Origin: Acaryochloris marina S15
Lineage (GTDB): Bacteria; Cyanobacteriota; Cyanobacteriia; Thermosynechococcales; Thermosynechococcaceae
Length of the DNA stretch: 32,000 bases
Assembly: GCF_018336915.1 (NCBI RefSeq)
Contig: NZ_CP064923.1
Location: 2,640,001 to 2,672,000, forward strand
Reading direction: 5' to 3'
The position numbers were made by a program, and so were the translations under genes. Below, piece by piece: positions 2,408 to 20,577 of this stretch; position 1 is the stretch's first letter, and every line of letters starts with the position of its first letter. The notes below the pieces were generated by a model. It searched no databases. It saw only the letters and a program-made list of their open reading frames with translations, and was not told the DNA's origin.

Positions 2408-2785
2408 ATGCAATGCCCACTATGCGGTCATTCCAAAGCACACAAGCATGGCAAGATGCCCAACATGCTTCAACGATACCGTTGTCCTGAGTGCCAGCAG
2501 ACCTTTACTGAACGCTTTGATACCCTTTACTATCGTCGTCAGGTGAGTCCAGAGCAGGTCCGACAAGTCCTCCAAGCCCATGCAGAAGGGAGTAGTCTTC
2601 GAGGTATCACTCGGACCAGTGGCCTGGCTTACAACACTGTAGTCTCTCTAGTAAGAGCTGCTAGCCAACGATCTCAGCAACTCCATAATGGTCAAGTGCA
2701 AGCCGTTGAAACGGAGGATGTCAGTGCAGATGAAATGTGGTCCTTTGTGAAAAAAAGCAAAAACACTGTCTTCCCCATGAGCTAG
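2408..2785 (+). CDS. insA: IS1-family InsA-like protein (zinc finger plus HTH); upstream frame of the InsAB fusion
   Basis: MQCPLCGHSKAHKHGK...YRCPECQQTF is a CxxC...CxxC zinc finger followed by an HTH-like region. The frame ends shortly after the A7 run. ...DEMWSFVKK resembles the IS1 frameshift window. Confidence 0.8.
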   Translation: MQCPLCGHSKAHKHGKMPNMLQRYRCPECQQTFTERFDTLYYRRQVSPEQVRQVLQAHAEGSSLRGITRTSGLAYNTVVSLVRAASQRSQQLHNGQVQAVETEDVSADEMWSFVKKSKNTVFPMS

Positions 2786-3237
2786 AGATGGGTGATTGTT
2801 GGATGGCGATTACCTTGGCAAACACAAGCGGCGTGATCCTCTCGTGTCGTGTGGGCAAGCACACCGATTCATTATTGAATGAACTGGTGACTAGCACTGA
2901 AGGTAAGACCGATTGCAAGGACTGGAATAGCGACGATTGGGGGGGGTACGAAAGAGTGTTGCCTTGGGAGATTGACCATTACATTGGCAAGGACAGAACT
3001 CAACGACTCGAACGCACCAATGGCATTATTCGACAGCACAGTGGTCGATGGCATCGACGCCAGAACAAATTTGGCAAAGTGTGGGCGCAAACCAAAGTCA
3101 CTGCTCGATTAGTGGTCAGCTATTTCAATTGGATTTGGACACACAGTCGGCTTAAAACAACGGCGGCACAACGTGCTGATCTAGCCTCGCGAGCTTGGCA
3201 TTGGGATGACATACTCACCTACCCCACAATTGTTTGA
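2737..3237 (+). CDS. insB: IS1-family InsB frame (DDE catalytic part), expressed as InsAB by -1 frameshift
   Basis: This frame is -1 relative to insA. A fusion at the A-run gives ...DEMWSFVKKKQKHCLPHE..CWMAITL..., followed by WNSDDWGGYERVLP and ...TNGIIRQHSGRWHRRQNKF, typical of IS1 InsB. Confidence 0.8.
   Translation: MVLCEKKQKHCLPHELEMGDCWMAITLANTSGVILSCRVGKHTDSLLNELVTSTEGKTDCKDWNSDDWGGYERVLPWEIDHYIGKDRTQRLERTNGIIRQHSGRWHRRQNKFGKVWAQTKVTARLVVSYFNWIWTHSRLKTTAAQRADLASRAWHWDDILTYPTIV
2750..2756 (+). promoter_or_regulatory. A7 slippery run: predicted -1 programmed frameshift site of the IS1-family transposase
   Basis: The sequence is gtg aaa aaa agc in the insA frame and gaa aaa aag caa in the insB frame. 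This is the same logic as the A6C site of IS1. Confidence 0.7.
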
Positions 3238-3333: not shown

Positions 3334-3400
3334 TAAGGAGTAGAGTGACTTACTGCACTCTATCAGATTATTCCTTAAACCCAGACCTTTTGAACGCTAA
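3334..3400. repeat. Copy 1 of a 67-bp direct repeat
   Basis: TAAGGAGTAGAGTGACTTACTGCACTCTATCAGATTATTCCTTAAACCCAGACCTTTTGAACGCTAA differs from 4914..4980 at 3 of 67 positions. It contains a small hairpin, TAGAGTG-8 nt-CACTCTA. Confidence 0.9.
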
Positions 3401-3551: not shown

Positions 3552-4864
3552 CTGCCTGCCTGACATAAGTACCTAAAAACCTTTATTTAAGAGACTTTCG
3601 GGAGAAAGGTGAAGAGGACATGTGAAGCTAGATTCAACCAAAAATCAGCTTTGCCCACATGTCTAACTCCACCCCAATTTATAGTCAACTTTTCTCCTTT
3701 CTGCGTCAATACAGCCATTACCGAGATCTGCGTCATCTCATTGCTCTTGCGTGGATGGTGAGCGCATTAATCTGTAGTGGTCAATTAAGCTTGTCTGCCT
3801 GGGAATCTTATGTTCCGAGTCGAGCTAAAAAAGCCCAGAGTGTCGAGCGTCGCTGGCAACGATTTATATCCAATAAACGCATTGATATCAACAAACTATA
3901 TGTGCCTCTGGTCCTGCTAGCGCTCAAGGATTGGCAATCCCATCGTCTTTATCTGGCGTTGGATACCACGGTTTTGTGGAATCAATATTGCATGATTCAT
4001 CTATCGGTCGTCTGCTGTGGCAGAGCAGTGCCGTTTTTATGGCTGGTGTTAGAGCATAAGAGTGCAGCAGTAGCATTTGAGGAATATCAACCGCTACTGC
4101 GACGAGCCCGTTGGTTATTACGGCAGCATCCAGATGTGATGCTGCTGGCAGATCGTGGTTTTGCTAATCATCAACTGATGAGCTGGTTACAGCAGAGCCA
4201 TTGGCATTACTGCTTGCGTATCCCTTGTGATGTCATCCTCCATGGTCCACGTCGATGTCCAAGAGAAGTCCGCAGGCTGTGGCCATCTAAAGGTGAAGCA
4301 GTCTTGTATCGGAATGTGGGTCTTTGGGAAGATGGTATATATCGCTGCGATCTAGTGCTGGCAAATATCCGAGGCGTGAAAGAGCCATGGGCTGTGATTA
4401 CTGATGAATCACCCACTCTACAGACCTTGTGGCAATATGCTTTGAGGTTTCGGGTGGAGGAATTATTTCTCGATAGCAAATCTGGAGCTTTTGAACTGGA
4501 AGAATCAAAAATTCGCTGTGCTGATGCCCTTGAACGGCTTTACTTGGTCGCTGCAGTAGCATTGCTTTTTAGCACCACTCACGGGATGGCTGTTCAAATT
4601 GAAGGACTGCGTGAGCAAGTGGATCCACATTGGCGACGGGGAATCAGTTATCTCAAAATTGGACTGCGATGGCTCCAGGGGGTCGTCAATAAAGGGCGTC
4701 CATTGTTAATGCCAGTTCCCCTACTTATTAATGACCCACAACTGTGTTTTGCATCCAAGAAAGCTCGAAAGAAGTACTACGATAAAATCTGGTTCTCTCG
4801 AATTCGCTCGTTACAGTGCAAAACCATATAGAGATAGCGATACAGAGATGTGTCAGGCGAGCAG
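3552..4864 (+). mobile_element. IS4/IS701-like insertion sequence (1313 bp) with a 9-bp target-site duplication
   Basis: A perfect 9-bp direct repeat, CATCCTAAT, lies at 3543..3551 and 4865..4873. Terminal inverted repeats are CTGCCTGCCTGACATA (3552 onward) against the reverse complement of the right end, CTGCTCGCCTGACACA (13 of 16 match). A single DDE transposase ORF lies inside. Confidence 0.85.
3659..4831 (+). CDS. DDE transposase, IS4/IS701-like
   Basis: 390 aa. The D..D..E candidates are LALDTTV, MLLADRGFANH and YALRFRVEELFLDSKSG, the last being the Y-x-x-R-x-x-I/V-E-x-x-F-x-x-x-K signature. Confidence 0.9.
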   Translation: MSNSTPIYSQLFSFLRQYSHYRDLRHLIALAWMVSALICSGQLSLSAWESYVPSRAKKAQSVERRWQRFISNKRIDINKLYVPLVLLALKDWQSHRLYLALDTTVLWNQYCMIHLSVVCCGRAVPFLWLVLEHKSAAVAFEEYQPLLRRARWLLRQHPDVMLLADRGFANHQLMSWLQQSHWHYCLRIPCDVILHGPRRCPREVRRLWPSKGEAVLYRNVGLWEDGIYRCDLVLANIRGVKEPWAVITDESPTLQTLWQYALRFRVEELFLDSKSGAFELEESKIRCADALERLYLVAAVALLFSTTHGMAVQIEGLREQVDPHWRRGISYLKIGLRWLQGVVNKGRPLLMPVPLLINDPQLCFASKKARKKYYDKIWFSRIRSLQCKTI

Positions 4865-4913: not shown

Positions 4914-4980
4914 TAAGGAGTAGAGTGACCTACTGCACTCTATCAAATTGTTCCTTAAACCCAGACCTTTTGAACGCTAA
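4914..4980. repeat. Copy 2 of the 67-bp direct repeat
   Basis: 64 of 67 positions identical to 3334..3400. It starts 27 nt after the reconstructed stop of the transposase-tail fragment. Confidence 0.9.
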
Positions 4981-5863: not shown

Positions 5864-6088
5864 ATGACAACTGAAAAAAAACTTAAAAACTCTTTCCTAG
5901 CAAAAATCTTTATACAGAAGCATAATTTTCGGTCTGATAATTTGAATAGACCTCTTAATTATTTTAATAAAGTTGAATCCAGTTATTTAAGTAATAAATC
6001 CAACTCTATTAATAATAAAAATCTAGATATTTCTTGGCTAGAGATTGATTTTGATAATACTGACTTAGAAGAAGGAGGCCGAATTTAG
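5864..6088 (+). CDS. Hypothetical Asn/Lys-rich 74-aa ORF in AT-rich DNA
   Basis: The only ORF of 60 aa or more in the roughly 1.1-kb AT-rich stretch. Its composition looks driven by AT bias, and the SD (agga) is weak. It may not be a gene. Confidence 0.2.
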   Translation: MTTEKKLKNSFLAKIFIQKHNFRSDNLNRPLNYFNKVESSYLSNKSNSINNKNLDISWLEIDFDNTDLEEGGRI

Positions 6089-6200
6089 TGAGAATATTAA
6101 ACTTAATCGAAAATAGCATAAATCTTGCTACATAAGGCTTTGAGAGAATATCCAAAATTAACCACAACTACTTTCTGTTTAAGGCTTTGAGGGGGGCGTA

Positions 6201-6327
6201 GTAGGGAGCATGTCACCTTTGCAGATGCACAAAATTTGGAATTAAAAATTTGATGTCCGAAAGCAAAGCTAGCAAGGTTTTTGAAATGAGTATAAATACT
6301 AGCTTGCAAAGGTGACATGCTCCCTAC
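6201..6327. mobile_element. MITE (127 bp) derived from the ISKra4-like element that ends at 11117
   Basis: Perfect 23-bp terminal inverted repeats, GTAGGGAGCATGTCACCTTTGCA at 6201..6223 and its reverse complement at 6305..6327, enclose 81 bp of non-coding AT-rich DNA. The inner 20 nt (TGCAAAGGTGACATGCTCCC) are identical to 11098..11117. Confidence 0.75.
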
Positions 6328-6582
6328 AAGGACCACAGCAAAGCCAGGGTTATCCCTTCAGTACTCTGCTTATTCAACTGTTCTTGAGCATCACTGGAGC
6401 CTAGGCTCGATATGAAGAGACTTATTGGAATACTACAGATTATTTGATGGCAGAGCTGTTTCAAATTCATGAGAATAAATCTGGTGCTACCATGCTTGCT
6501 GGTAGCTATACTTACCTGTCCACTTTTTTGGGTGAAGGACACTTATTGTATTGATACATTGAAAAAGCAGTGAAGGGGAGCA

Positions 6583-7050
6583 ATGAAAACAATAGAATTC
6601 CCACTCTATCTCGACTCATCACAACAAACCAAAGTTACTGAGTGGATGGATACTCTTAAACATGTCTTCAACCGAGGCATAGCTCTGTTGGAGTGGCGGC
6701 AGTTTTACAACCGACTGCAAAAAGTCCTTGAGGTTGACCCAGATTATTGCACCCCTGTCCAACTCAACGTCACTAAAGTTGGAGATGAGTGGTCAATGTC
6801 TTGCGATTGTAGTATCAAGGCTCGCATTGACAAGACCAAATCCTGGGATGGGGCGAATATTGAGTATCGACCTGCTTGTACTCTGGTCAAGCCCCATTGG
6901 TTTACAGAACCCCTTACCACTGGCTATAGCGCCGTAGACCTGCGTAAACCATTTGCCCGCAAGCGCTACGACAAACTAGGTGATATCCCCCAGGTCTATG
7001 TTAATGACTTCATCAGCCTGGTCGTCACTAAAGCCTGGGCCAACTATTTA
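6583..7050 (+). pseudogene. N-terminal part (156 codons) of a TnpB/Cas12-like gene disrupted by IS630-family insertion
   Basis: MKTIEFPLYLDSSQQTKVTEWMDTLKHVFNRGIALLEW resembles the TnpB N-terminus (AYKFRLYPNxEQ...N.AL). The part ends ...VVTKAWANYL at the insertion point. SD gaagggga lies upstream of the ATG. Confidence 0.75.
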
Positions 7051-8196
7051 TACCAAATCCGACTTATTAACCCCTGAAATATCTCATCGGTCAAACTGGC
7101 CACCAATGGTAGTAAGTGAGAGCTTTAATGTCTGATTGCATGGTCATTAAAGTTCGACAGCGCTCCTCGAGCACATCTTCGAGAGCATCGAGGGTCTCAA
7201 AGCATCGATTGGCGATTGGTTCATCCGCTAGCCGCCACAATCGTTCAGCGGGCTGTAGTTCTGGAGAATAGGGAGGTAAAACCTTCAGATGAATGCCTTT
7301 AGGTACCACCAGATTTTTACAGGTATGCCATCCTGCACCATCTAGAACGAGAAGAATCTGTTTGTGCTGTCCCGCTCCAACTTGCTGAGCAAAGCTTTGC
7401 AGGGCTTGATTAAACCATTCTCCATTCACCCGAGGCAGAATGAACCATTCAGTGTCGCCTGTTGCGGGGTGAACGAATCCATAAAGATAGGCCCATTCGT
7501 AGCGATGGTCCACCTCAGCAATCGGACGCTGACCTACAGGTGCCCAGATCTTTCGAATGATGGGTTTAAGGCCTAAGCGGTGTTCATCAAAAGACCACAC
7601 TTCGACTTGAGCATCAGGATAGCGTCGCTCCAATTCTGCTTTGCACTCAGGCAGTTTTTTTAAAGGCGGCTTGTGCCTCTGGGTCGCCTTTACGATGATG
7701 AGGACGTGGGCATTGAAGGGACTGCTCCAATCGCTTGAGATAGTCCCAACCTCGTTGGGGCCAAACCTTCTCAACTCCTGTCATTTGGGCGATGACCTGT
7801 GCTACTTTTGGCCCGTTCCATAGACCACCGTCGGCAGGTGGGGTTTGGAGACGAGTCGACAATTGTGCACATTGGTCTTGAGTCAGGAGACTGCGAGATT
7901 GGTAAGGTCGTTTATCTTTGCGTCGGTTGCGTAATCCATTAGCTCCATTGCGGTTATACTCTCTAACAATTTCTCGGGCGTAATCGTAGTTGAGACCGAC
8001 CACTTGGGCTGCTTGAGTTAGCTTTGTTTGCTCACTGACGAGCCACAGCAGATGCCAGCGGCGCGATTCTACTGGGTCTTGGCTGGCCCGATAATGAGAC
8101 TTCAGCTCCTCAGGCGAAAAATGAGGTTCGAGATACAGTTTTCTTGGCATTCTCTAATTATGAATTATATCGGAGTTATATAAATCGGATTTGGTA
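7051..8196 (-). mobile_element. IS630/Tc1-mariner-family insertion sequence (about 1.14 kb) inserted at a TA within the TnpB-like gene
   Basis: Terminal inverted repeats: TACCAAATCCGACTTAT (7051 onward) against the reverse complement of the right end, TACCAAATCCGATTTAT (16 of 17 match). The ends are TA...TA, and a flanking TTA occurs on both sides (7048..7050 and 8197..8199), so the duplication is either TA or TTA. Confidence 0.85.
7091..8150 (-). CDS. IS630-family DDE transposase, split into two frames at an A7 run
   Basis: The N-terminal frame (7647..8150) is HTH-rich and ends ...DPEAQAAFKKTA-stop. The C-terminal frame (7091..7774) reads ...LKKLPECKAELERR... with FDEHRLGL, LVLDGAGWH and PPYSPELQPAERLW (D, D, E). 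The two frames join at the run 7655..7661. Confidence 0.85.
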
Positions 8197-9465
8197 TTAG
8201 ATCCGAACAGACCCGAAATTAGACGACCTCGATATAAAGGCAAGTGTGACCGGGTAAACACCATTCCCTGTGAATCTTTCCGCGCCCAAGCCAAAATTGA
8301 TTTTGCTACAGATCGGTTGCAGCTCCCTGGCCTAGGTTGGATCGGTATTCCTGCCCTCTCTGTTCGATTGGGGAGTGTCATGATTAGACAGCAAGTGCAG
8401 ATGGCAAAGTATCCCGACCGCTACCCAGAACTAGCCAAAAAGCTGAATGAGCGGGATGCATTTTTGAGTGTGGCTAGATGGCTGGAGAGGGATATTCCAA
8501 TGCCAGAGAAGATAACGGGAGATATCAAAAAAGCTATCAATCATGCTGAATGCGTTATCAAGAAATCGGGCCAGGTCACACAGGCCATTGCAAAATTGAG
8601 AGAATTGTCAGAGAAGCGAGAATTACAACAGGCGATTAATGACCTTTGTACTCCTGGAGTCTTTAGGATTTGTCGACGCGGGGATAAATTCTATCTCCAA
8701 ATCGCGGTCCGCTCAGTAGTGAATCCTGGTAATCCTCGGCCCAAACCAATAGGTTTGGATGTAGGTTTAGATCTACTATGCTGCACGACCAATGGCGTGC
8801 AGACTAAGCATCCTGATTTGAGGCGATTGACTAGCAAAATTATTCGCCTCAAGCAGAAACAATCGCAGATGATGTTAGGTTCTGCAAACTGGCACCGTAT
8901 TCAAAAAAAGATTAGTAACGCGGAACGACAGAAAACTAAAGCCAAGCGCAACAAACAGCACTATATTGCAGGCTGGTTAGTGGACACTAATCAGCATATA
9001 GCGATCAAGAAAGTCAATCCAAAAGAGGTTGTCGCACGACCCTTGCCGCGACCGAGTGAAGACAACGAGCAATATCTACGTAATGGTAGAGAAGATCAGC
9101 GTATCATCAACTATCAGTCGAAGGAAGCCTCAGTTGGTCAGTTTATCAGCTTAATTCTTTCGAAAGCCAGTGACAGAGAAAATCGCATGATAGAATTGGT
9201 AGCATGTGAGCCTGAAGCCACACCGACTAAAATTTTGGAAGCGTCCAGTTTCCACTCCGGCGGTCCACAGTCGGAGCCAGCCCAAAACCTGCAAAGGACA
9301 CGGGAAGGTGATGCGGTAACGCTCACCATGCGAGGGGAAAGCAACAGCGACTCCTCAACAACTCATAGATCGAAGCAAGCCCATGAGCTTGCCAATCCAG
9401 CTAAAAGCCCCAAACCTTTCAAACGTCCACGGCGTAAGCCATGGGCTGAACGTAAGACCTTTTAG
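8197..9465 (+). pseudogene. C-terminal part (422 codons) of the TnpB/Cas12-like gene; RuvC-I is retained, while RuvC-II, the zinc finger and RuvC-III are lost
   Basis: DPNRPEIRRPRYKGK matches the P-R/K-F-K-x-K motif. Also present are LQLPGLGWIG, FRICRRGDKFYLQIAV, PIGLDVGLD (Asp codon 8758..8760) and GSANWHRIQKKISNAERQKTKAKRNKQHY. IAIKKV replaces I-x-I-E-D-L (Lys at 9007..9009). There is no Cys-containing zinc ribbon. QSEPAQNL (9268..9291) replaces D-x-N-A-A-x-N-I. Confidence 0.75.
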
Positions 9466-9523
9466 GTTTTTCAAATACTGACAGATTGGTTGTGGCTGAA
9501 GTTTGCGCCTTAGCAATTTATCC

Positions 9524-9556
9524 AATGCTTTCTACATGACAAAAGCATTTTGTTTA
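9524..9556 (+). terminator. Candidate intrinsic terminator downstream of the TnpB-like ORF
   Basis: AATGCTTT (9524..9531), a 10-nt loop, then AAAGCATT (9542..9549), followed by TTGTTTAT. The 8-bp stem is AT-rich, so this is only moderate support. Confidence 0.3.
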
Positions 9557-9708
9557 TGGGGTTATTCTTCCTTTTTACTTTCAAAAATACTGTGGAGACT
9601 AAGTTTTTGAAGACTGGGTGATTTAGGGCATTAGATCTAAAGTGTTGGTGGACATTGGGCCTACAGTTATCTGTTCTCAAAGCTCAACTTTACCCATCAA
9701 GCATCATA

Positions 9709-10122
9709 GCAAGCGTAAATATTACACATTTTAGCAATATTTCATGTTACTATATTTTCTTTGAGAGTAATGGTGAGAGATGGACTACGAATTTAGAGTA
9801 ATAGTCGAGAAAGTCTCCGTCACCAGCCAGGAAGTAGTCAAGCGAGACACTCAAAAAATATATGACATCCAACAACCCGAATCAATTCTCGATCTAGGAT
9901 TGCGTCATGAAGAGCAAATCTCTCTACTTTCCAAAGTCCAAAGTGCTCTGTTAGCCGAGCAATCAACCCTTATCGATCCTGGATTCAAGCAGTGTATCAA
10001 ATGCGGAGAGAAAATAGGCAAACTGGGTTTTCAAGCATCTACATTTCATGCCGTCTTCAGCGATCATAAACTCCGAATCCAAAAACATCGGTGCAAGATC
10101 CCTGAGTATTGTTGGCAAAGTA
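9709..10122 (+). mobile_element. 5' fragment of an ISKra4-like element (copy 1), truncated after about 113 codons
   Basis: The terminal repeat GCAAGCGTAAATATTACACATT at 9709..9730 matches the ends of the intact copy at 18988..20454. ORF 9780..10130 (MDYEFRVIVEKVSVTSQEVVKRDT...HRCKIPE) closely matches the first 110 or so residues of the 450-aa transposase. Nucleotide identity is roughly 85% by eye. Homology stops at ...tggcaaagtat (10122). Confidence 0.8.
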
Positions 10123-10268
10123 TCAACTGATTTCGGGTTTTAATCCATGGGTAAGATTATCTAAAACCCTTTTTCTGCATAGCATTCCACCGACACAAAC
10201 TAAAATGACGCCAGCCATTTAGTTTACCGTTCGTTAGGAGTGCAAATGCCTCAAACTAAGTCCCATAA

Positions 10269-11108
10269 ATGGATTCCAACCTACTTTTTGCAGGTACGAT
10301 AAACTTCGAAAAAAAGCTTAAAAGTAGCTTTATTCACATTAATTGTTGCTTGCGCATCAGTGCGAATGTCTCCTACGCTCAAGCTGCTAAAGATGTGACT
10401 TATTTAACGGGTATTCAGGTTGCAGCCAAAACCCAGCAACGCTTGGTCCATCAGCAACGGTTTCCTACGCCCCAGGCCCACGAAGCTTTAACTGAAGTGA
10501 GTGTCGATGGTGGCAAAGTACGCATCCGCACACCTGCAGGCCAACCTTGTCAGTGGAAAGACTATAAAACCTTAGCAACAGACGTGGGACTCATTGCGGA
10601 TTATCACAATAATGCCCGGCTCATTGGCTGGACTCACCAGCAACCGTTAGCCTCTCCAGTGACTTGCTTAGGGGATGGTCATGATGGCATTTGGAACATC
10701 ATTCGTCAGCTGAGCATACCTGAGCAACGACGGGAGATTCTGGACTGGTACCATCTGGTGGAAAATCTTCATAAGGTCGGTGGATCTCTCAAGCGTCTGC
10801 ACCAGGCTGAACAACTCTTATGGCAGGGGAAGGTGGATGAAACCTTGACTCTGTTTGAATCGTTGAAGAAAAAGCAAGCCCAAGTCTTTTGCAACTATAT
10901 CCGCAAACATCGGCATCGGATCGTCAATTATGACTATTACCAGAGTGAGCAAATTTGTTCTATTGGGTCTGGAGCTGTTGAATCTGCTATCAAACAGATT
11001 AGTCGCAGAGTCAAAATTTCAGGGGCGCAGTGGAATGAAAGCAATGTCCCGCAAGTGCTTGGACACCGATGTGCTTATCTCAATGGTTTAATTTGCATGC
11101 AAAGGTGA
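10269..11108 (+). CDS. ISKra4-family-like transposase of a second subgroup; probably N-terminally truncated, as no left end was found
   Basis: 279 aa with LGDGHDGIWN, LDWYHLVENL, LWQGKVDE and IGSGAVESAIKQISRRVKISGAQWNESNVPQVLGHRCAYLNG. These parallel LADGASNCW, LDWFHIGKKF, LWHGKVDD and SQVAESHID...MQWT in the 450-aa protein. The stop lies inside the terminal repeat at 11098..11117. A stop codon lies immediately upstream of the ATG, and no matching left repeat is nearby. Confidence 0.7.
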   Translation: MDSNLLFAGTINFEKKLKSSFIHINCCLRISANVSYAQAAKDVTYLTGIQVAAKTQQRLVHQQRFPTPQAHEALTEVSVDGGKVRIRTPAGQPCQWKDYKTLATDVGLIADYHNNARLIGWTHQQPLASPVTCLGDGHDGIWNIIRQLSIPEQRREILDWYHLVENLHKVGGSLKRLHQAEQLLWQGKVDETLTLFESLKKKQAQVFCNYIRKHRHRIVNYDYYQSEQICSIGSGAVESAIKQISRRVKISGAQWNESNVPQVLGHRCAYLNGLICMQR

Positions 11109-11117
11109 CATGCTCCC
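11098..11117. repeat. Right terminal repeat of the second ISKra4-like element
   Basis: TGCAAAGGTGACATGCTCCC is identical to the MITE terminus at 6305..6324 and is the reverse complement of 6204..6223. GC content drops abruptly immediately to its right. Confidence 0.8.
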
Positions 11118-12291
11118 GGACCTCTAGTTATGTATGGTAATTATTTTTTCAATACATAATATTACTTTATAAACAATGGATAGATACTAATATTACTTTT
11201 ACATAACAAAAAAAATGACTTTTAAATAGACTTTCTAGTAGTTTTTTAAAAACAGGTGATAATTAGTGACTTTAAACAGACTATTACTAAAATTAAATAT
11301 ATATATAAATATTAACAGTCTGGACAATAATATTTTTTAGAATATAATTAATTATCGGTTCCATTAATCTATAGCAGCTTATCTTCAAATCATGAATGCC
11401 TACAAATAATAGTCAGCATAGAAGATTTTACTTTTGTTTCAGTAATTCAATATGATTAACTATTATAATCTACATTTTCGTCTGAATTAAATTACTATTA
11501 ATAAGTTAAGTCAGAAAGCGTATATATCACACTCCTATTGGCATTAAGCTCCTTTATAAATTCTTTAATCTCATCTTTAATTATTTTTGTAATGGTATAA
11601 AATTTGGAATATGAGTACTGCGTTAGGTAAGATACTCAAAAAGTTCGTCAACAGTGCAAAGTAGAGTTTATGACATGGCAAGTCAGATTATCTTTTGAAA
11701 AGATGCTCATATATTGGTATTACATATCAAATAATGGAAGTAATCAAAGCTCAAAGCCTTTGACGTTAAAGAATAATTTGTGGTTCGATAATAATGTGAG
11801 CTAATAGAAAAGAGATGCACTTCACCAATGTATTTGCAAAAAAAAATATATAAAAACTATCATTAATGCTTGCAGCAAAATAAAAAAAACCTGTTTTTTT
11901 TTCGCAGTAAAGCTTACATCATTTTGTTAAACTAGGGCTGCTATAATCATTAATAAAAAAACAATGATGCTTATGAAAAAGTCATAAAGTTGACTTAAAT
12001 TATCTAAACAATGTAGGCTTTTCTGTTTTTCAAAAACTATAACTTATTAAACTAAACATTATTTTATTTATAAAATCAGCTTATATCAGTTTAGAAATAT
12101 TTTTTAACCCATTGTAAATTTAAGTGTTATGCCAATAAAATCACCTCTGAAATAAAAGGAGAAAAAAATTGTAGTTGTGAGAATCTCAAAGCATAAATTT
12201 TAACCTATCTTTTATGCAATTTTAGTAGCGATAACTCTTCCTAAGATAACCGATTAGTTTGAATAATTATTTTGTATGGCCTGGAGCAATT

Positions 12292-12879
12292 ATGTCAAAT
12301 TCAGTCAAAACTGAGTATTTTGAGTTTATGAGAACCGATCTTCAACAAACATTTTCTTCCAGTCATATAGAACCAAGCAAATTAAGTACATTTCAGCGAA
12401 TACTATTAACAACTGATGGAACAGTAACTGATATTCTTGAAGCTTATGCTTTTGAGCAAATTCAGATTGTAAAACTTTCAGAGAGTCTGTTTATACTGGA
12501 AGACGATATTAACTCTATGAAACTAAAAAAGGGATCTGAAGTAATCGCAAGAAAGATTTTGTTACAGGGGAAAATAAGCCGAAAAAACTTTGTTTACGCA
12601 GAATCAATTATTGCTCCAGAAAATCTAAATATTCGGTTTAGAGAAGCCCTTCTTAAAACTAAATCACCTATCGGAAAACTGTGGTTTGAACAACGCGTTG
12701 AAACATTTAAGGAAATAGTTAATACAAGTATTGAGTCTGCTACGAATCTATCAAAATATTTCAACATAGGAATTTCTGATAAACTTTTCTCAAGAACATA
12801 TCAAGTTTTTACAGATAATAAACCGGTTATGATGATTACGGAGAAGTTCCCAGAGTCTTATTTTACAGACTTATTTTGA
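12292..12879 (+). CDS. Chorismate pyruvate-lyase family (DUF98/UbiC-like fold) protein
   Basis: FQRILLTTDGTVTDILEAY, ...ARKILLQG..S...FVYAESII, SPIGKLW and PVMMITEKFPESYF fit the pattern I recall for DUF98 chorismate lyases such as mycobacterial Rv2949c. I prefer ATG 12292 (ggag 6 nt upstream) to the track's TTG at 12259. Confidence 0.65.
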   Translation: MSNSVKTEYFEFMRTDLQQTFSSSHIEPSKLSTFQRILLTTDGTVTDILEAYAFEQIQIVKLSESLFILEDDINSMKLKKGSEVIARKILLQGKISRKNFVYAESIIAPENLNIRFREALLKTKSPIGKLWFEQRVETFKEIVNTSIESATNLSKYFNIGISDKLFSRTYQVFTDNKPVMMITEKFPESYFTDLF

Positions 12880-13318
12880 TAAATTAGTATTCTCAGAGTC
12901 AAGAACTGAATTAGTATTTTGGTAAAGATATAAGTGGTCATATTAATCAGCCTATTTTGAATATTAAATGCTAAATGCAATATTGTAAAAACCAACTACT
13001 AATAAAAATTTCCTAAATTATTTTTTTCGTTCTTTATTAGCGATTACATAACTAATAGTTTTGCCTTAGAGAAAATATTTAATTTGTGAATGCTTCAACT
13101 CATATATATTTACTTTAATTTTGGATCTTTATTTTAAAGAATTAGTTATATATATCAACCTTTTTAATTAATGCTTAACCCAAAATTCCTAGAAATCTAT
13201 TAAGTATATATAAATAGAATAAGTAAAATATGCTGGACATCGTATTACGGTTAAATAAAAGGTTTATTTTTTAGAAAATGCAAAGATTTAACGTTTTCAA
13301 ATTTAGATAAGAGGAATA

Positions 13319-14851
13319 ATGCTTTATAACATCTTAAAAGAAGTAGCTATAAAAAACCCAAATGAAATAGCAATTATATACGGTGAAACAAAGATAACTT
13401 ACAATACCCTACTAGAAAAAATAAGCGGCTTAAGTGAAGGATTGAAGTCTATAGGGCTTAAAAAGGGAGATTGCTTAGCACTATTACTACCCAACTGCCC
13501 TGAATTCATTTTTACATTTTATGCTGCTATGACACTTGGAGCTATTATTTTACCCCTCAATCACTTGTTCAAAGCAGAGGAAGTAGAATTTTATCTGCAA
13601 GATAGTCATGCGAAATACATCATTACAGATAGTCATCGGTTTCAATCTTGTATACAGCTAATTTCTAATCTATCTAACTCAGTTGAAGTCATAGTAATAG
13701 ATTCTACTCGGACAAGTAGTCAATCTTTCTCTGATTTAATTAAATCGAATATTTTGGATACTAGACCTATACATATTGATCCTAACTCTAGTGCTATTTA
13801 TCAGTATTCATCAGGTTCGACTGGACGTCCCAAACGAGTTACCCGGACTCAATCGAATCTAGTCAGCGAAGTAAGAAGTTTCGGGGCAACCACTAATATA
13901 ACCCCTACTGATAAAATCCTCTGTATCGTCCCACTCTATCATGCTCATGGATTAGGGAACTGCCTGCTCGCTTCAACCTGTAATGGTGCGACACTAGTAA
14001 TTTTAGAGCCACTTATGAAGAATGATCTTCCAGTTGAAGTTCCATTTGTGTTTAGATGTCCAAGAGTTCTTGAACTAATAGAAAGTAAGAAAATTACAGT
14101 TTTACCTGCTGTTCCTTATATTTTTAGCACAATGGTTGAGACACCTGTATGTACCAATGCCAACCTTAACTCTTTAAGGCTTTGTTTTTCAGCTGGAAAC
14201 TTTCTTGACCAAAAAACTTTTGATCATTTTTTAAATAGATATGGTGTTCCTATTAGACAGCTTTATGGTTGCACAGAAGCTGGTTCAATTTCAATTAATT
14301 TAAGTACTGAGGTTGCACAGACTGCTAAGTCAGTAGGACAATCACTACTCGGCGTTCAAGTTTCCATTATTGACGATAACGGTAAAATTTTACCAAATGG
14401 TGAAATCGGGGAAATAATTGTTAAGAGCCAAGCTTTGACGAAAGGCTATGACAAAATGCCTGAATTAACTTCATTCGCTTTTCAAGATGGAGCTTACTAT
14501 ACAGGAGATCTAGGATTTTTAGATCAAAATAGATATTTATATATTACTGGCCGAAAAAAAATCTTAATTGATACAGGGGGACGGAAAGTAGATCCCATTG
14601 AGATTGAAGATGTCCTATTAACTAATCCTAAAATTAAAGAGGCTGTTGTAGTAGGTGTTAAAAGTAATCTTGCAGGAGAGTTGATTAAAGCAGTTGTGGT
14701 ATTAAAAAATGGTATTTATTACAGCGAAAAAGAAATTCAAATTTTTTGTAGAAAATATTTAGCTGACTATAAATCACCGAAGATGATTGAGATTCGCGAC
14801 GAAATCCCTAAGAGCCCTCTTGGAAAAGTTTTAAGGAAGGAGTTAATATAG
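13319..14851 (+). CDS. Stand-alone adenylate-forming enzyme (acyl/aryl-AMP ligase, ANL superfamily)
   Basis: Core motifs are present: YSSGSTGRPKRV (A3), YGCTEAG (A5), YYTGDLG (A7), GRKKILIDTGGRKVDPIEIE (A8) and PKSPLGKVLRKEL (A10). SD gagga precedes the ATG. Confidence 0.9.
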   Translation: MLYNILKEVAIKNPNEIAIIYGETKITYNTLLEKISGLSEGLKSIGLKKGDCLALLLPNCPEFIFTFYAAMTLGAIILPLNHLFKAEEVEFYLQDSHAKYIITDSHRFQSCIQLISNLSNSVEVIVIDSTRTSSQSFSDLIKSNILDTRPIHIDPNSSAIYQYSSGSTGRPKRVTRTQSNLVSEVRSFGATTNITPTDKILCIVPLYHAHGLGNCLLASTCNGATLVILEPLMKNDLPVEVPFVFRCPRVLELIESKKITVLPAVPYIFSTMVETPVCTNANLNSLRLCFSAGNFLDQKTFDHFLNRYGVPIRQLYGCTEAGSISINLSTEVAQTAKSVGQSLLGVQVSIIDDNGKILPNGEIGEIIVKSQALTKGYDKMPELTSFAFQDGAYYTGDLGFLDQNRYLYITGRKKILIDTGGRKVDPIEIEDVLLTNPKIKEAVVVGVKSNLAGELIKAVVVLKNGIYYSEKEIQIFCRKYLADYKSPKMIEIRDEIPKSPLGKVLRKELI

Positions 14852-14920
14852 CGAATTATTAATCGATTAATATCAAAAGAGCTAATATTGTTTATAAAAA
14901 ATTATTTGTGGATCACTAAA

Positions 14921-15169
14921 ATGACATATTCACCTGAAAAATTAACTGAAAAAATTAAAAGTGTGATTCTTGACCTTATACCTATCGATGAAGATAAATT
15001 GTTGGATAACTCAGATATCTTTAATTTAGGTTTAGACTCAATTAACGCTATGACACTAGTTTTTAATTTACAAGATACATTCTCAATAAAATTTGAAGTT
15101 CTTGAAATTGATGTTGAAAATTTCAGGAGTGTCAAGGATATATCCAAGCTTATAAGAAGCAAACTCTAA
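14921..15169 (+). CDS. Stand-alone acyl/peptidyl carrier protein
   Basis: LGLDSINAMTLVFNLQDTF carries the (L)GxDS phosphopantetheine-attachment serine. The protein is about 83 aa from ATG 14921; the track's TTG start at 14888 is less likely. Confidence 0.8.
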   Translation: MTYSPEKLTEKIKSVILDLIPIDEDKLLDNSDIFNLGLDSINAMTLVFNLQDTFSIKFEVLEIDVENFRSVKDISKLIRSKL

Positions 15170-15191
15170 TGACTTATTTTTTATTCTGAGA

Positions 15192-16046
15192 TTATTCTTC
15201 AAGGTGATTGGAAAAAAAAATTTCTACCATATTTAATATGCCCGGAGATGAGAATTTTTTACCATGTCCTCCACCATGAATAACTTCAAAAGTAACTTCA
15301 TTACCAGCTTGACTTAATGATTCATATAAGATTTGACTTTGATTTAAAGGAACAAGTAGATCATTATCTGCGTGCATAATAAGAAATGGCGGGACTGACG
15401 AGGTGATATGAGTGATTGGATTAGCTAAAGCGACTTTATCTACGGCTGATTGAATAGGATATCCAATTAACTCCGATTCGGGAGAGTCATAAGCATCATG
15501 ATCAATTTCACTAGGGTAACTATTCATTCTTAAAAAATCTGTCGGACCAAACCAATCACAAACAGCTTGAACTTTACTTGAAGATGATCTCCATGGTCCC
15601 GACTTATCGAATTCTTTCATATGCTGAGTTGTACCTAGGAGTGCTGCTAGATGCCCTCCTGATGAAGAACCCCAGACACCAATTTTCCTTGGATTCAAAT
15701 TTAACTCATTTGCGTTAGCTCGAAGAAACCGAACTGCACATTTGCAGTCTTCAAGCTGGGCTGGAAAGGGTGCTTCAAAGCTCAATCGATAATTAATACT
15801 TACGCAAAAGTAGCCACGTAGAGCAAAAGGGATAATTTTTTTCTTACCATCCTTCTTAGTACCTGATCGCCATCCACCTCCATGGATCCAAATTATTACA
15901 GGCATTGGCATTTTTGAGGGACAAATGAGATACATCATATCCATTGTTAGCGAACAAGTATTTGTTCTGCAATATTCAATGTCTTGTCGGTAAATTAGTT
16001 GTTTTCTTAGTCGTATGATGGATTCGAAAATTTGCAATTTATTCAA
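15192..16046 (-). CDS. Alpha/beta-hydrolase (esterase/lipase, HGGG-type)
   Basis: VIIWIHGGGW supplies the oxyanion HGGG. GVWGSSSGGHLAA is the GxSxG nucleophile elbow. HADNDLLVP and GGGHG supply candidate Asp and His. It is convergent with the carrier-protein gene. Confidence 0.85.
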   Translation of the reverse strand: MNKLQIFESIIRLRKQLIYRQDIEYCRTNTCSLTMDMMYLICPSKMPMPVIIWIHGGGWRSGTKKDGKKKIIPFALRGYFCVSINYRLSFEAPFPAQLEDCKCAVRFLRANANELNLNPRKIGVWGSSSGGHLAALLGTTQHMKEFDKSGPWRSSSSKVQAVCDWFGPTDFLRMNSYPSEIDHDAYDSPESELIGYPIQSAVDKVALANPITHITSSVPPFLIMHADNDLLVPLNQSQILYESLSQAGNEVTFEVIHGGGHGKKFSSPGILNMVEIFFSNHLEE

Positions 16047-16147
16047 TATCAGAAGAAGTTAACTCATTAAATTTATATTTCTATGAGCAAGCTGCAGGCA
16101 ATAGATTCTTATTTAGTGTTCGGTATATCTGGTATTTCTAAAGATAA

Positions 16148-18802
16148 GTGGGTACATTTTATACTATGAATACAAGCTTTAACTCCGACTCGTCGATATC
16201 AAAACTAGAACCTCTAGAGAAGAAAAAACAATCTAGTGAGACGAATTTGTGGACATCTATCCGTAATATTATTGCACTACAGAATCAAGCGCCTGAACTT
16301 AAAAAGCTATCAAGTGGCCTTACTGCACCAACCTCTTTTAATCAAGAGAGACTTTTGCTTTTAGATAAGCTTAGGCCAAATAGTATTGTTTATAATATAC
16401 CATTCGCATTTCGCATTTTTGGAGACCTTGATATATCTACCTTAGAGAAGTCTATACAAGTCCCAATTTATCGACATGAGGTTTTGCGAACTACTCTACT
16501 TCAGGATGATTATGGTGTCACTATTCAACATATTCATCCAATGCCTGAAAATACGCTATCTATTCAAGATCTACATATGCTCAATGAACTTGAACAAGAT
16601 ATGTTGATTGATAATTTTGTAAGGGAAGTTGTAGAGACTCCCTTCAATCTTGATAAAGGCCCACTAATTCGAGCAAATCTTCTCAAAGTCTCATCTCAAG
16701 ATTTTATTTTAGTTCTAACGATCCATCACGCTATATTTGATGGTTGGTCTGAAGGCATTTTGTTTGATGAAATATCCAAAGCTTATAAGACTTACTATGC
16801 TAGAGAAGATTTACAGCTGGATAGAATTCCGATTCAATATTCTGATTACTCCATTTGGCAACGCCAGTGGATAACAGGTGATTTTCATCAGGTCCTTACT
16901 AACTATTGGAAGACTACTTTAGATGAGTCTTTGAGAAGATTAGACTTACCGGTTGATATCTCAGCAATTAAAGCTAACCAATCTCAACGTAGTGCTTGCG
17001 AGAAGTTGTATCTAAATTCACAAATCACAAATTCTTTAAAAGAACTATCTTGCCAACAAAAAACAACTCTTTTTTGTGTACTTTTATCTGCTTTTTATGT
17101 TCTTTTATATCACTATACTGGGCAATCGGATCTTGCTGTTTGTACACCCACAGCGAGTCGTAATCGAAGTGAATTAAAGGGAATGATTGGTTACTTTGTT
17201 AACCTATTAGTGCTACGCAATGATTTATCTTACAAGCCATCATTCAGGCAATTAATTGAACGTGCTAAACAGGTTATATCTGGTGCAATAGCTCACCAAG
17301 ATTTGCCCGCGCAGGACTTGCTAAATTGTATTGCGGGAGATCAGATGGTAATGTCCCAGGTTTTGTTTGTGCTACAGAATACTCCACAGAAATCACTCTT
17401 ATTGCCAGATCTTGAGGTTCAGCGATTTGAAGTTGATAATGGTATAGCCGATTTTGATTTGTTTCTTTCTTTGATGGATGATGCAGGATCAATTAAGGGG
17501 ATACTTAAGTACAATGCAGATCTTTTTGAAGCTAATTCAGTACTTAAAATGCTTCAACACTATAAAGAGATTCTATCAAAAGCGATTGTAAATCCTGATA
17601 GTTCTATCGACAACTTATTGAAGCTATCAGTTTATGAAAAACGAGAACTTACTGCTAAACGTCATCAGGAAAAGCGTCTATCATCAGTTAAAACTCAGGA
17701 GAAAGTCCAGTTTGTTACACCTCGTAATGAGACGGAGAGAAAACTGCAAAATATTTGGCAGATAGCCTTAAATATTCAGCCTATTAGTATAACTGATAAT
17801 TTCTTTGATTTAGGAGGAAAGTCTCTTGCAGCAGTTAAACTTTTTAGTCAGATTGAAAAAACCTTTGGTAAGAAGCTACTGTTCAGTGATATTTTTAAAT
17901 CTCCCACAATCGAGAAACTGGCTATAAAACTTAAAGAGGAAGAAACTATAGGCTATAAGAAATCGCTTGTGGCAATTAATTGTGAAGGGTCCAAACCCCC
18001 ACTTTTTTGTATTCACTCAGTTGAGCCAAGTATTTTACACTATCGCTATATTTCTAACTATTTAGATACCGATCAACCGTTTTATGCTCTTCAGCCTCCT
18101 GCATTGTGTTCCAGTGATGAGATCCTGTTTGCTTCTATTGAAGAGATGGCGCTTTACTATGCTAATGAAATTCAAAAGTTTCAACCTCAAGGCCCTTACT
18201 TTCTTACCGGACATTCAATGGGAGGAGTGATTGCTTACGAGGTTGCTTGTAAGCTCCAAGGAAAAGGGGAAGAAGTTGCCTTCCTCGGTCTTATTGACAG
18301 CTTTGCACCTCAGTACCATAAGCATGATACATCTAGCACCAAAATCTTCTATCAGCTTTTTATCCATTGTCGCAATATAATACGAGTCTCCCCTAAACGG
18401 AAGATAGGGTACATTATAGAGCGGTTGAAATACGTGATTCCAAACTCTATATGGAGTATACTAAATAAACAATCAATATTTGAGATAATTGACATATCAG
18501 TCCACAATGAGTTAACTGATATATACCAAAATCTTCCTATTTATAAGAAAATTAAGCAGGCACATTATAAGGCTTATAAAAAATATATCCCAACTCATTT
18601 ATACTCTGGTAGCATATTTTTATATCGTGCCACTGAGCGACCTACTACGATTCGTTATTATTCAGCCCTAGGCTGGGAAAAATATCTCTCTGAGAACATA
18701 GAAATTATAGAAGTTCCTGGAAATCATAATGCAATAGTTCATGAACCTTATGTCAAAGTTTTGGCTAGAAAAATTCAGAAATCTATTGATAAACAGCTGT
18801 AA
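16148..18802 (+). CDS. NRPS-like condensation / thiolation / thioesterase (C-T-TE) protein without an adenylation domain
   Basis: C domain: SFNQERLLLLDKL (C1) and IHHAIFDGWS (HHxxxDG). T domain: FFDLGGKSLAAVKL. TE domain: PLFCIHS, GHSMGG, LIDSF and VPGNHNAIV. No A-domain core motifs occur between C and T. The start is either GTG 16148 or ATG 16166. Confidence 0.9.
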   Translation: MGTFYTMNTSFNSDSSISKLEPLEKKKQSSETNLWTSIRNIIALQNQAPELKKLSSGLTAPTSFNQERLLLLDKLRPNSIVYNIPFAFRIFGDLDISTLEKSIQVPIYRHEVLRTTLLQDDYGVTIQHIHPMPENTLSIQDLHMLNELEQDMLIDNFVREVVETPFNLDKGPLIRANLLKVSSQDFILVLTIHHAIFDGWSEGILFDEISKAYKTYYAREDLQLDRIPIQYSDYSIWQRQWITGDFHQVLTNYWKTTLDESLRRLDLPVDISAIKANQSQRSACEKLYLNSQITNSLKELSCQQKTTLFCVLLSAFYVLLYHYTGQSDLAVCTPTASRNRSELKGMIGYFVNLLVLRNDLSYKPSFRQLIERAKQVISGAIAHQDLPAQDLLNCIAGDQMVMSQVLFVLQNTPQKSLLLPDLEVQRFEVDNGIADFDLFLSLMDDAGSIKGILKYNADLFEANSVLKMLQHYKEILSKAIVNPDSSIDNLLKLSVYEKRELTAKRHQEKRLSSVKTQEKVQFVTPRNETERKLQNIWQIALNIQPISITDNFFDLGGKSLAAVKLFSQIEKTFGKKLLFSDIFKSPTIEKLAIKLKEEETIGYKKSLVAINCEGSKPPLFCIHSVEPSILHYRYISNYLDTDQPFYALQPPALCSSDEILFASIEEMALYYANEIQKFQPQGPYFLTGHSMGGVIAYEVACKLQGKGEEVAFLGLIDSFAPQYHKHDTSSTKIFYQLFIHCRNIIRVSPKRKIGYIIERLKYVIPNSIWSILNKQSIFEIIDISVHNELTDIYQNLPIYKKIKQAHYKAYKKYIPTHLYSGSIFLYRATERPTTIRYYSALGWEKYLSENIEIIEVPGNHNAIVHEPYVKVLARKIQKSIDKQL

Positions 18803-20454: not shown

Positions 20455-20577
20455 AATGGAGGGTGCTTTGGTACGGAAGGAATTGTCGGAGGAGTTCCAT
20501 AACCTTACCTGGTAAGGGTTGATCTCTCTATTCTCTAACTCTTATTTCAGCATCACCAAAAGAGGACAAGAGCCTTA

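Follow-up and report, generated by a model that had tools for sequence, protein, structure and literature searches.

The split gene and the element inserted in it

The stretch of DNA analysed here, referred to as the window, comprises 32,000 nt of the Acaryochloris marina S15 genome (contig NZ_CP064923.1, positions 2,640,001 to 2,672,000 of the forward strand). On its + strand, open reading frames (ORFs) at 6583..7077 and 8191..9465 lie on either side of a minus-strand transposase of the IS630 insertion-sequence (IS) type. These ORFs represent the two parts of a single gene, split between codons 156 and 157, whose product has 577 aa. The protein is Cas12-like and lacks catalytic residues of its nuclease domain, and the gene is therefore called the dead Cas12-like gene below. 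The features at the split are as follows.

6583..7050, + strand: 5' portion of the dead Cas12-like gene, with codons 1-156, the last being Leu156 (TTA, 7048..7050); read from the ORF list and its translation, and aligned with residues 1-156 of the 577-aa orthologues P0001-P0004
7048..7050, no strand: left copy of the TTA target-site duplication, read directly in the sequence; removing one copy restores the junction of the orthologues
7051..8196, - strand: IS630-family insertion sequence of 1146 bp, with its transposase in two overlapping frames, a helix-turn-helix (HTH) part at 7647..8150 and a DDE_3 part at 7091..7774
8197..8199, no strand: right copy of the TTA target-site duplication, read directly in the sequence
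8200..9465, + strand: 3' part of the dead Cas12-like gene, codons 157-577 and the stop codon

The inserted element has the features of the IS630 family, namely a DDE_3 domain preceded by an HTH at the N-terminus, short inverted repeats at the element's ends and a duplication that contains TA. Its transposase matched Pfam DDE_3 (3.5e-21) and HTH_33 (9.5e-16), with HTH_23 also matched, and its termini are perfect 12-nt inverted repeats, TACCAAATCCGA, at 7051..7062 and 8185..8196. A partial copy on plasmid pREB5 of A. marina MBIC11017 is 91% identical and has the same end, ...TTTGGTA, followed by TAA. Removal of 7051..8199 from the window leaves 1734 nt, which encode 577 aa and a stop codon. A search of 5.8 billion proteins returned four uninterrupted orthologues of 577 aa, with identities of 86, 82, 80 and 74%, each of which stems from an Acaryochloris genome or metagenome. 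In each of the four the junction reads KAWANYLDPNRPEI (ANYLDPNRPE), as it does in the rebuilt window protein. The 424-aa 3' fragment is itself represented by a protein of 100% identity (P0005), labelled 'transposase' in an A. marina genome.

The original prediction, made from the window alone, had described a gene split by an IS630 element, and the HTH and DDE_3 ORFs, the 12-nt inverted repeats, the TTA flanks and the intact orthologues bear this out. It had offered two reconstructions. The one that treats TTA as the target duplication (577 aa) is correct, because the four intact orthologues have exactly 577 aa and the same junction; the one of 578 aa, with two successive Leu residues, does not match them. 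A TA duplication with the element at 7053..8194 was also considered and rejected, since its product is frameshifted and disagrees with the orthologues.

The rebuilt protein and its clade

The best NCBIfam match of the rebuilt protein was C2c8 (NF038192), with E=2.4e-42 and 145.6 bits over residues 271-491 only. The curated cut-off of this model is 350 bits. It was reached neither by the rebuilt protein nor by the other members of the clade described below (52-235 bits), whereas their nearest intact relatives scored 408-481 bits. The NCBIfam models for TnpB matched at 1e-12 to 1e-14, far under their own cut-offs, and the only Pfam match was a weak one to OrfB_IS605. An AlphaFold2 model of the rebuilt protein had a mean predicted local distance difference test (pLDDT) score of 77.7, with the basic tail (residues 510-577) disordered. 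Foldseek ranked Cas12p first (E=1.4e-13), followed by ISDra2 TnpB, TranC and Cas12f, with weak matches to Cas12k and Cas12m. Cas12p was also the best solved match in a profile search of the PDB (9jfs/9jg3, E=1.8e-21). The C2c8 and TnpB models and the fold matches to Cas12p and ISDra2 TnpB thus confirm that this is a TnpB/Cas12-type protein, as originally proposed.

Alignment to intact C2c8 and TnpB relatives placed Asp343 (8758..8760) at the RuvC-I Asp, and Lys426 (9007..9009) at the position of the RuvC-II Glu. No Cys of the window protein aligns with the CxxC..CxxC zinc ribbon, and the RuvC-III segment is also gone. What remains of the RuvC-III helix is EATPTKILEAS (residues 494-504), aligned with VAAAINILSKA of the intact relative P0018. 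The original prediction had called the kept RuvC-I Asp, the RuvC-II Lys and the missing zinc-ribbon Cys correctly from the window alone. It had placed the RuvC-III remnant at QSEPAQNL, and here the alignment to P0018 overturns it; QSEPAQNL sits in a stretch that AlphaFold2 modelled as disordered.

To place the rebuilt protein among its relatives, a profile search was made of 1.84 billion representative proteins. About 35 clusters (at 50% identity) matched over the full length, while intact TnpB/C2c8-like proteins matched over the RuvC core only. When 144 proteins were aligned together, the combination of the D/E/D triad with the four Cys was seen in most proteins outside the group and in none of its 35 representatives. 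The RuvC-II position is Lys in the subclade of the window protein and Gln, Thr, Asn, Ala, Tyr or Leu in other subclades. The RuvC-I Asp is kept in the Acaryochloris, P0006 and P0011 subclades and is replaced by Ala, Ser, Thr, Glu, Gln, Lys or Asn elsewhere. At the RuvC-III position the group has no conserved acidic residue, and the zinc ribbon is missing from every member. The 35 dead proteins formed one clade with no intact member inside it in a rough neighbour-joining tree without bootstrap. Since the nearest intact relatives pass the C2c8 cut-off, the clade reads as a dead branch beside type V-U2. Together, these comparisons suggest that the rebuilt protein is probably a member of a monophyletic dead offshoot beside type V-U2 (C2c8) that occurs in Acaryochloris, related cyanobacteria and phage-like contigs.

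Five Acaryochloris orthologues, each of exactly 577 codons, gave overall ratios of nonsynonymous to synonymous substitution (dN/dS) of 0.07-0.13 at dS 0.8-1.6. In their RuvC-like part the ratio was 0.05-0.15. The overall ratio indicates that the clade is not in plain decay and, judged by codon substitution, the nuclease-dead state is held by purifying selection. The view that this is a nuclease-dead derivative under selection, first put forward for the window copy, therefore gains from both the clade-wide loss of catalytic residues and the dN/dS values. A reading of the clade as dying TnpB/C2c8 pseudogenes, kept open by luck, would be in keeping with the IS-disrupted window copy, its IS-rich surroundings and an MBIC11017 copy that is without its downstream RNA region, but is very improbable given the five orthologues of unchanged length at these dS and dN/dS values, the invariant non-catalytic residues common to the 35 representative clusters, and the conserved flanking RNA elements and arrays described below.

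Two further parts of the protein stand out. A Cys-containing, β-rich insert at residues 52-125 (window 6733..6957) carries the most conserved motif of the clade, RIDKTKSWDxxNIE. It sits roughly where Cas12p has its thioredoxin-binding domain; no sequence alignment between the two was obtained. In the loop after the RuvC-II strand (residues 439-464, 9046..9123), Pro437, Pro439, Tyr448, Asn451 and Asn460 are invariant across the dead clade, unlike the catalytic residues.

CRISPR arrays, the predicted guide-RNA scaffold and the window copy

A locus search with a narrower alignment yielded four loci in GTDB species representatives, one in IMG/VR and three in Joint Genome Institute (JGI) metagenomes. 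A clustered regularly interspaced short palindromic repeat (CRISPR) array lies downstream of the gene in 10 of 12 distinct loci, the window included. Homology between the window and the orthologous loci runs past the stop codon to 36-nt direct repeats at a spacing of 70-75 nt. The arrays of the other nine loci are as follows.

L018, Acaryochloris orthologue of 86% identity: 2 repeats
L007, Acaryochloris metagenome-assembled genome (MAG): 2 repeats and a degenerate third
L005, orthologue from a JGI metagenome: 2 repeats and a degenerate third
L011, more distant relative: 3 repeats
L017, more distant relative: at least 5 repeats
L019, more distant relative: 14-15 repeats
L009, Thermosynechococcaceae MAG: 11 repeats of 29 nt
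L010, Thermosynechococcaceae MAG: 6 repeats of 29 nt
L020, more distant relative: at least 3 repeats of 30 nt, at a contig end

No cas1 or cas2 was found among the called genes of the loci looked up. Several of the contigs are phage-like. Among the genes of L011 are those for a Mu-type portal, gp36, a lysozyme, a Clp protease and an RRXRR-HNH protein; L019 encodes a lysozyme, methylases and HicB, and L020 a DNA polymerase exonuclease and Dam. L012-L015, 66,991 bp long, is a viral contig from IMG/VR. The Acaryochloris copies lie in unrelated chromosomal or plasmid contexts without phage genes, and their neighbours differ between loci. Homology between loci ends within ~45 nt upstream of the ATG and, on the other side, after the array.

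In the array of L019 (7859..8177), spacers 1 and 5 represent variants of a single sequence (...GGAATTGCAGATTCCCGCAA and ...GGGATTGCAGATTCTCGCAA), and spacers 3 and 4 have 3' ends in common; such spacers may be directed at variants of one protospacer. On the viral contig (L012 1152..1497 and 6001..7731), a convergent gene overlaps the stop codon of the array-less clade member, and ~4.5 kb upstream of that member there is a 47-bp tandem repeat (7.5 copies, 93% matches) that is not CRISPR-like. On plasmid pREB1 of MBIC11017, a 132-nt fragment on the opposite strand (L001 1092..1223), ~7 kb from the intact copy, is 74% identical to window 9230..9361, in the 3' part of the gene.

Downstream of the gene, and in its 3' end, the window holds the following.

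9351..9372, + strand: predicted anti-repeat within the ORF; its sequence, CTCCTCAACAACTCATAGATCG, complements the 3' half of the 9618..9653 repeat
9351..9617, + strand: predicted scaffold similar to a tracrRNA (trans-activating CRISPR RNA), running from the anti-repeat up to the repeat and so including the 152 nt that follow the stop codon
9618..9653, + strand: lone surviving CRISPR repeat of 36 nt, GTGATTTAGGGCATTAGATCTAAAGTGTTGGTGGAC, 152 nt past the stop codon; it aligns with the first repeats of the L018, L007 and L005 arrays and occurs once in the window
9654..9689, + strand: sequence in the position of a spacer, ATTGGGCCTACAGTTATCTGTTCTCAAAGCTCAACT, with no second repeat after it
9705..11117 (right end approximate), + strand: ISLre2/UPF0236-like insertion sequence with a frameshifted transposase (9780..10130 and 10269..11108), roughly where the array should continue

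The region downstream of the stop codon is conserved in L005, L007 and L018, and in seven loci, some of whose proteins are only ~34% identical, the first repeat follows 148-154 nt after the stop codon. For the four Acaryochloris loci, RNAalifold predicted that the 3' half of the repeat forms a long-range helix with a segment of the ORF that lies ~110 nt ahead of the stop codon. This helix contains compensatory changes (CAACAC/CAAAGC opposite GTGTTG/GCTTTG), and the codons concerned switch from Thr to Lys. In all seven loci, which have three repeat types, the ORF at -110 to -124 from the stop codon is complementary to the repeat of that same locus: this position reads CGATCGACT in L019 and L017 and CAAATACC in L011, each complementing its own, different repeat. 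Cross-pairing was energetically strongest among loci of one repeat type. Six of the seven loci also keep another helix, GCAAGC:GCTTGC. In codons 510-577 dS was 0.2-0.5, compared to 0.6-3.6 in the other three segments of the gene, which is the pattern expected if an RNA overlaps the coding sequence. Collectively, the anti-repeat and the downstream stretch fit a tracrRNA-like scaffold that would start inside the ORF, in the position of the omega-RNA of TnpB. A first, ungapped search for an anti-repeat had given a different best site in every locus. The four Acaryochloris loci also offered a candidate at -243, which was discarded because it is G:U-rich and falls within conserved coding sequence.

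The original prediction had treated the window gene as a stand-alone TnpB derivative with no guide context. The downstream arrays, the anti-repeat in the ORF and the repeat that survives in the window contradict this. A tandem-repeat scan of the window gave no array, and the repeat emerged only from comparison with the orthologous loci. Rfam and tRNA scans of the window found no known RNA and no tRNA, and a promoter and terminator scan of 6300..9800 gave results at chance level.

The window copy is inactivated: its gene is split by the IS630 element, its array is cut to one repeat and one spacer, and its scaffold is degenerate. The scaffold has 33 private differences, compared to 9-16 in the other loci, and the motif GTGCTTGC, kept in six other loci, reads ATTCTTCC in the window at ~9567..9574. 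In the ORF itself, private nonsynonymous and synonymous changes number 24/18, compared to 20/17 in L007 and 25/26 in L005. These counts give no clear sign of lineage-specific relaxation of the window ORF, suggesting that the IS630 insertion is probably recent.

The ISLre2-like element that lies roughly where the array should go on has a second copy in the window. The segment 9705..10123 and the reverse complement of 20032..20458 share 84% identity; the latter stands next to an intact 450-aa paralogue (19023..20375, minus strand), and both copies match Pfam UPF0236 only under its cut-off. Related 27-mers resembling GTAAGCGTAAA.AT...ACATT at 9707, 18797 and 18986 may be ends of this type of element. 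Just upstream of the dead Cas12-like gene, 6183..6223 and 6305..6345 form a 41-nt inverted repeat (85%), whose arms match the right end of the ISLre2-like element (11095..11117) over 20-23 nt; it looks like a miniature inverted-repeat transposable element (MITE) derived from an ISLre2-like IS.

Proposed role and alternatives

We propose, with a probability of roughly 0.7, that the intact gene encodes a nuclease-dead, CRISPR-associated Cas12-like effector beside type V-U2 that binds DNA under RNA guidance without cleaving it, and of which the window holds an inactivated copy. The intact module would be ~2.1 kb long and comprise the effector gene, the tracrRNA-like scaffold and a short array of 36-nt repeats. 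The dead protein would bind the duplex of tracrRNA and CRISPR RNA (crRNA) and then locate complementary DNA. With RuvC-II Glu, RuvC-III segment and zinc ribbon all missing, it would stay on the DNA and leave it uncut, and could block transcription or replication in the manner demonstrated for Cas12m, Cas12c and TldR. Its use would likely lie in conflict between phage and host or between phages, or in gene control; takeover of the host and defence are also conceivable.

Several observations weigh against this proposal. The case for binding without cleavage is built on missing residues; the RuvC-I Asp is kept in the Acaryochloris subclade, and Glu492 and Glu494 flank the position of the RuvC-III Asp, so that residual or RNA-processing activity is conceivable. 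The anti-repeat was recognised in seven loci, with single-locus shuffle tests that were modest (0.004 to 0.15 of shuffles as good or better). L009, L010 and L020 are laid out differently, with repeats of 29-30 nt starting 51-54 nt past the stop codon. Two loci, the 67-kb phage L012-L015 and MBIC11017 pREB1, are without an adjoining array; the pREB1 copy is intact, but its downstream RNA region is lost and a fragment of IS21 IstB follows the gene. Finally, searches of phages, plasmids, IMG/VR and the fetched loci revealed no spacer target. Comparison of 26 spacers with the INPHARED phages gave one chance match (E=0.5), seven Acaryochloris spacers had no match among the PLSDB plasmids, two exact 20-22-mers had none in IMG/VR, and all spacers compared with all fetched loci gave self matches only. 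The spacer of the window had no match in the window, the fetched loci, INPHARED, PLSDB or IMG/VR.

The foremost alternative is that the dead protein serves as a targeting module for a partner enzyme, recruiting either a transposase, as Cas12k or the Cas12 of CasMu-V does, or a separate nuclease. The Mu-type portal, gp36 and RRXRR-HNH genes of L011 would suit such a role, as would arrays that are short and resemble those of CRISPR-associated transposons (CASTs). We nevertheless consider it unlikely. No tnsB, tnsC, tniQ, MuA or MuB was found among the scanned window ORFs or the called genes of L001-L006, L011-L013, L019 and L020, the neighbours differ at every locus with no conserved adjoining gene, and the 14-15 repeats of L019 are unlike a homing array. 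CasMu-V, in which RuvC-III is lost too, was considered as a relative and ruled out, as it is reported to derive from V-F and no Mu transposase accompanies the dead clade. Cas12k itself resembles the rebuilt protein in being cyanobacterial, naturally RuvC-dead, of similar size and served by short arrays. However, the Cas12k model (NF038191) was absent from the NCBIfam matches up to E=1, no Cas12k chain appeared in the PDB profile search, the Foldseek match to Cas12k had E of ~3e-3, and no locus examined has tnsB, tnsC or tniQ. The long tracrRNA of Cas12k is encoded between gene and array, while the anti-repeat of the dead clade lies within the ORF.

Slightly less likely still is that the protein remains active, as a nuclease on DNA or as an RNase on pre-crRNA, through the RuvC-I Asp combined with further acidic residues or with a cofactor from the host. 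The Acaryochloris, P0006 and P0011 subclades retain Asp343, Glu492 and Glu494 are close to the position of RuvC-III, and there is a precedent in Cas12c, whose RuvC serves crRNA processing only. Cas12p, the nearest relative with a solved structure, depends on a host factor (10.1101/2025.01.20.633832). Set against this are the Lys or other non-acidic residues at RuvC-II, the replacement of the RuvC-I Asp in other subclades, the want of a conserved acidic residue at RuvC-III and a zinc ribbon missing in every member. Cas12p, also called 'Cas12 hacker', and the dead clade are alike in being 500-700 aa long and phage-encoded; Cas12p uses a tracrRNA, as is predicted for the dead clade. In contrast, Cas12p has an intact RuvC, actively cuts DNA and needs host thioredoxin via its thioredoxin-binding (TB) domain, whereas the catalytic residues of the rebuilt protein are absent; identity between the two is only 12-13%, with a template modelling (TM) score of ~0.32-0.36.

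An improbable alternative is a single-guide transcription factor of the TldR type, in which the Acaryochloris module has been domesticated to control one host gene through one or two spacers. TldRs show RuvC decay and have lost the ZnF (zinc finger)/RuvC part at the C-terminus, some are phage-borne, and they bind without cutting, as is predicted for the dead clade (10.1101/2023.11.30.569447). The same losses in the rebuilt protein, the one or two spacers and degenerate terminal repeat of the Acaryochloris loci, and their chromosomal or plasmid contexts without phage genes all point this way. A TldR, however, is described as having one fixed guide beside the gene, with no CRISPR array, and as standing stably with fliC, oppF or csrA. 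TldRs are also smaller. The dead clade has true arrays, in which repeats alternate with up to 14 spacers, it lacks a conserved neighbour, spacers are wholly different between orthologous loci, and no target was found in these 32 kb of the genome or in A. marina plasmids. The Cas12k model and fold tests, the lack of tns genes, the true arrays and the lack of a conserved partner gene uphold the earlier statement that the protein is neither Cas12k nor TldR.

As an RNA-guided binder, the dead clade would have functional parallels in other lineages. Cas12m and Cas12c keep the zinc ribbon and belong to different TnpB lineages, with a weak fold match to the rebuilt protein (E ~1e-3, TM 0.2). Cas12m is common on plasmids and in some prophages and works without a tracrRNA. 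For V-C (Cas12c) and V-M (Cas12m), interference acts through DNA binding that blocks transcription, and not through cutting (PMC12669027). With the omega-RNA of TnpB, the dead clade shares a guide scaffold that is predicted to start in the 3' end of the effector ORF, and the split of omega-RNA into tracrRNA and crRNA is a step described for TranC (PMC13565253). Unlike TnpB and TranC, the dead clade has no transposon ends or TnpA, is nuclease-dead and has regular arrays of 36-nt repeats. No Y1 transposase, as would be expected of an IS200/IS605 TnpB transposon, was present among the scanned window ORFs; nor were tnsB, tnsC or tniQ, as noted when the window was first read.

Active C2c8 (V-U2) effectors remain the nearest comparison. 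Like them, the dead proteins are TnpB-sized to slightly larger and adjoin arrays, and their called neighbours include no adaptation gene; they differ in their extra N-terminal and helical inserts, their basic disordered tail and the loss of the catalytic Glu, the RuvC-III segment and the ribbon. V-U2 effectors are reportedly of especially high prevalence in cyanobacteria, and one cyanophage has a putative V-U2 system (PMC6293099). Reviews give V-U2 as uncharacterised, and a 2019 review singles out V-U5 as the one V-U group predicted to be inactive (PMC6452270). We found no paper in the literature that names a cyanobacterial dead V-U2 branch. A 2025 classification (PMC12669027) mentions ~50 independent associations of TnpB with arrays and names the inactivated subtypes V-O and V-P; the dead clade may already be catalogued, for example as V-O or V-P.

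Somewhat short of an even chance, in our estimate, is a more far-reaching possibility: that the clade is an undescribed, V-U2-derived, nuclease-dead type V lineage of cyanophages and Acaryochloris which, with its anti-repeat in the effector ORF, would be a living intermediate between omega-RNA and the tracrRNA:crRNA pair, and a natural CRISPR-interference device in phage conflict. Naturally dead relatives of Cas12 and TnpB (Cas12k, Cas12m, Cas12c and TldR) have each represented a new use of RNA-guided DNA binding and have supplied compact tools. If the proposal holds, the clade would add another independent loss of nuclease activity, on the least-studied branch, V-U2, with real arrays on phage-like contigs, and an anti-repeat embedded in the effector ORF would bear on the origin of tracrRNA and crRNA from a split omega-RNA. 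The protein, which has 577 aa, a definable guide scaffold and no zinc ribbon, would be a candidate compact programmable DNA binder. The disrupted window copy is of value mainly as a pointer to the clade.

The wider surroundings of the gene hold further mobile elements, with at least five IS or MITE types within 11 kb. At 2408..3237 there is an IS1-like overlapping ORF pair with an InsA-type zinc ribbon and an IS1 DDE transposase. Direct repeats of 67 nt at 3334..3400 and 4914..4980, 96% identical, enclose an IS4-like transposase ORF (3659..4831, Pfam DDE_Tnp_1). Further downstream, 12259..18802 encodes a small set of the non-ribosomal-peptide type, comprising a chorismate lyase-like protein, an AMP-binding enzyme (510 aa) and a condensation/carrier/thioesterase protein (884 aa), with a BD-FAE hydrolase on the opposite strand.

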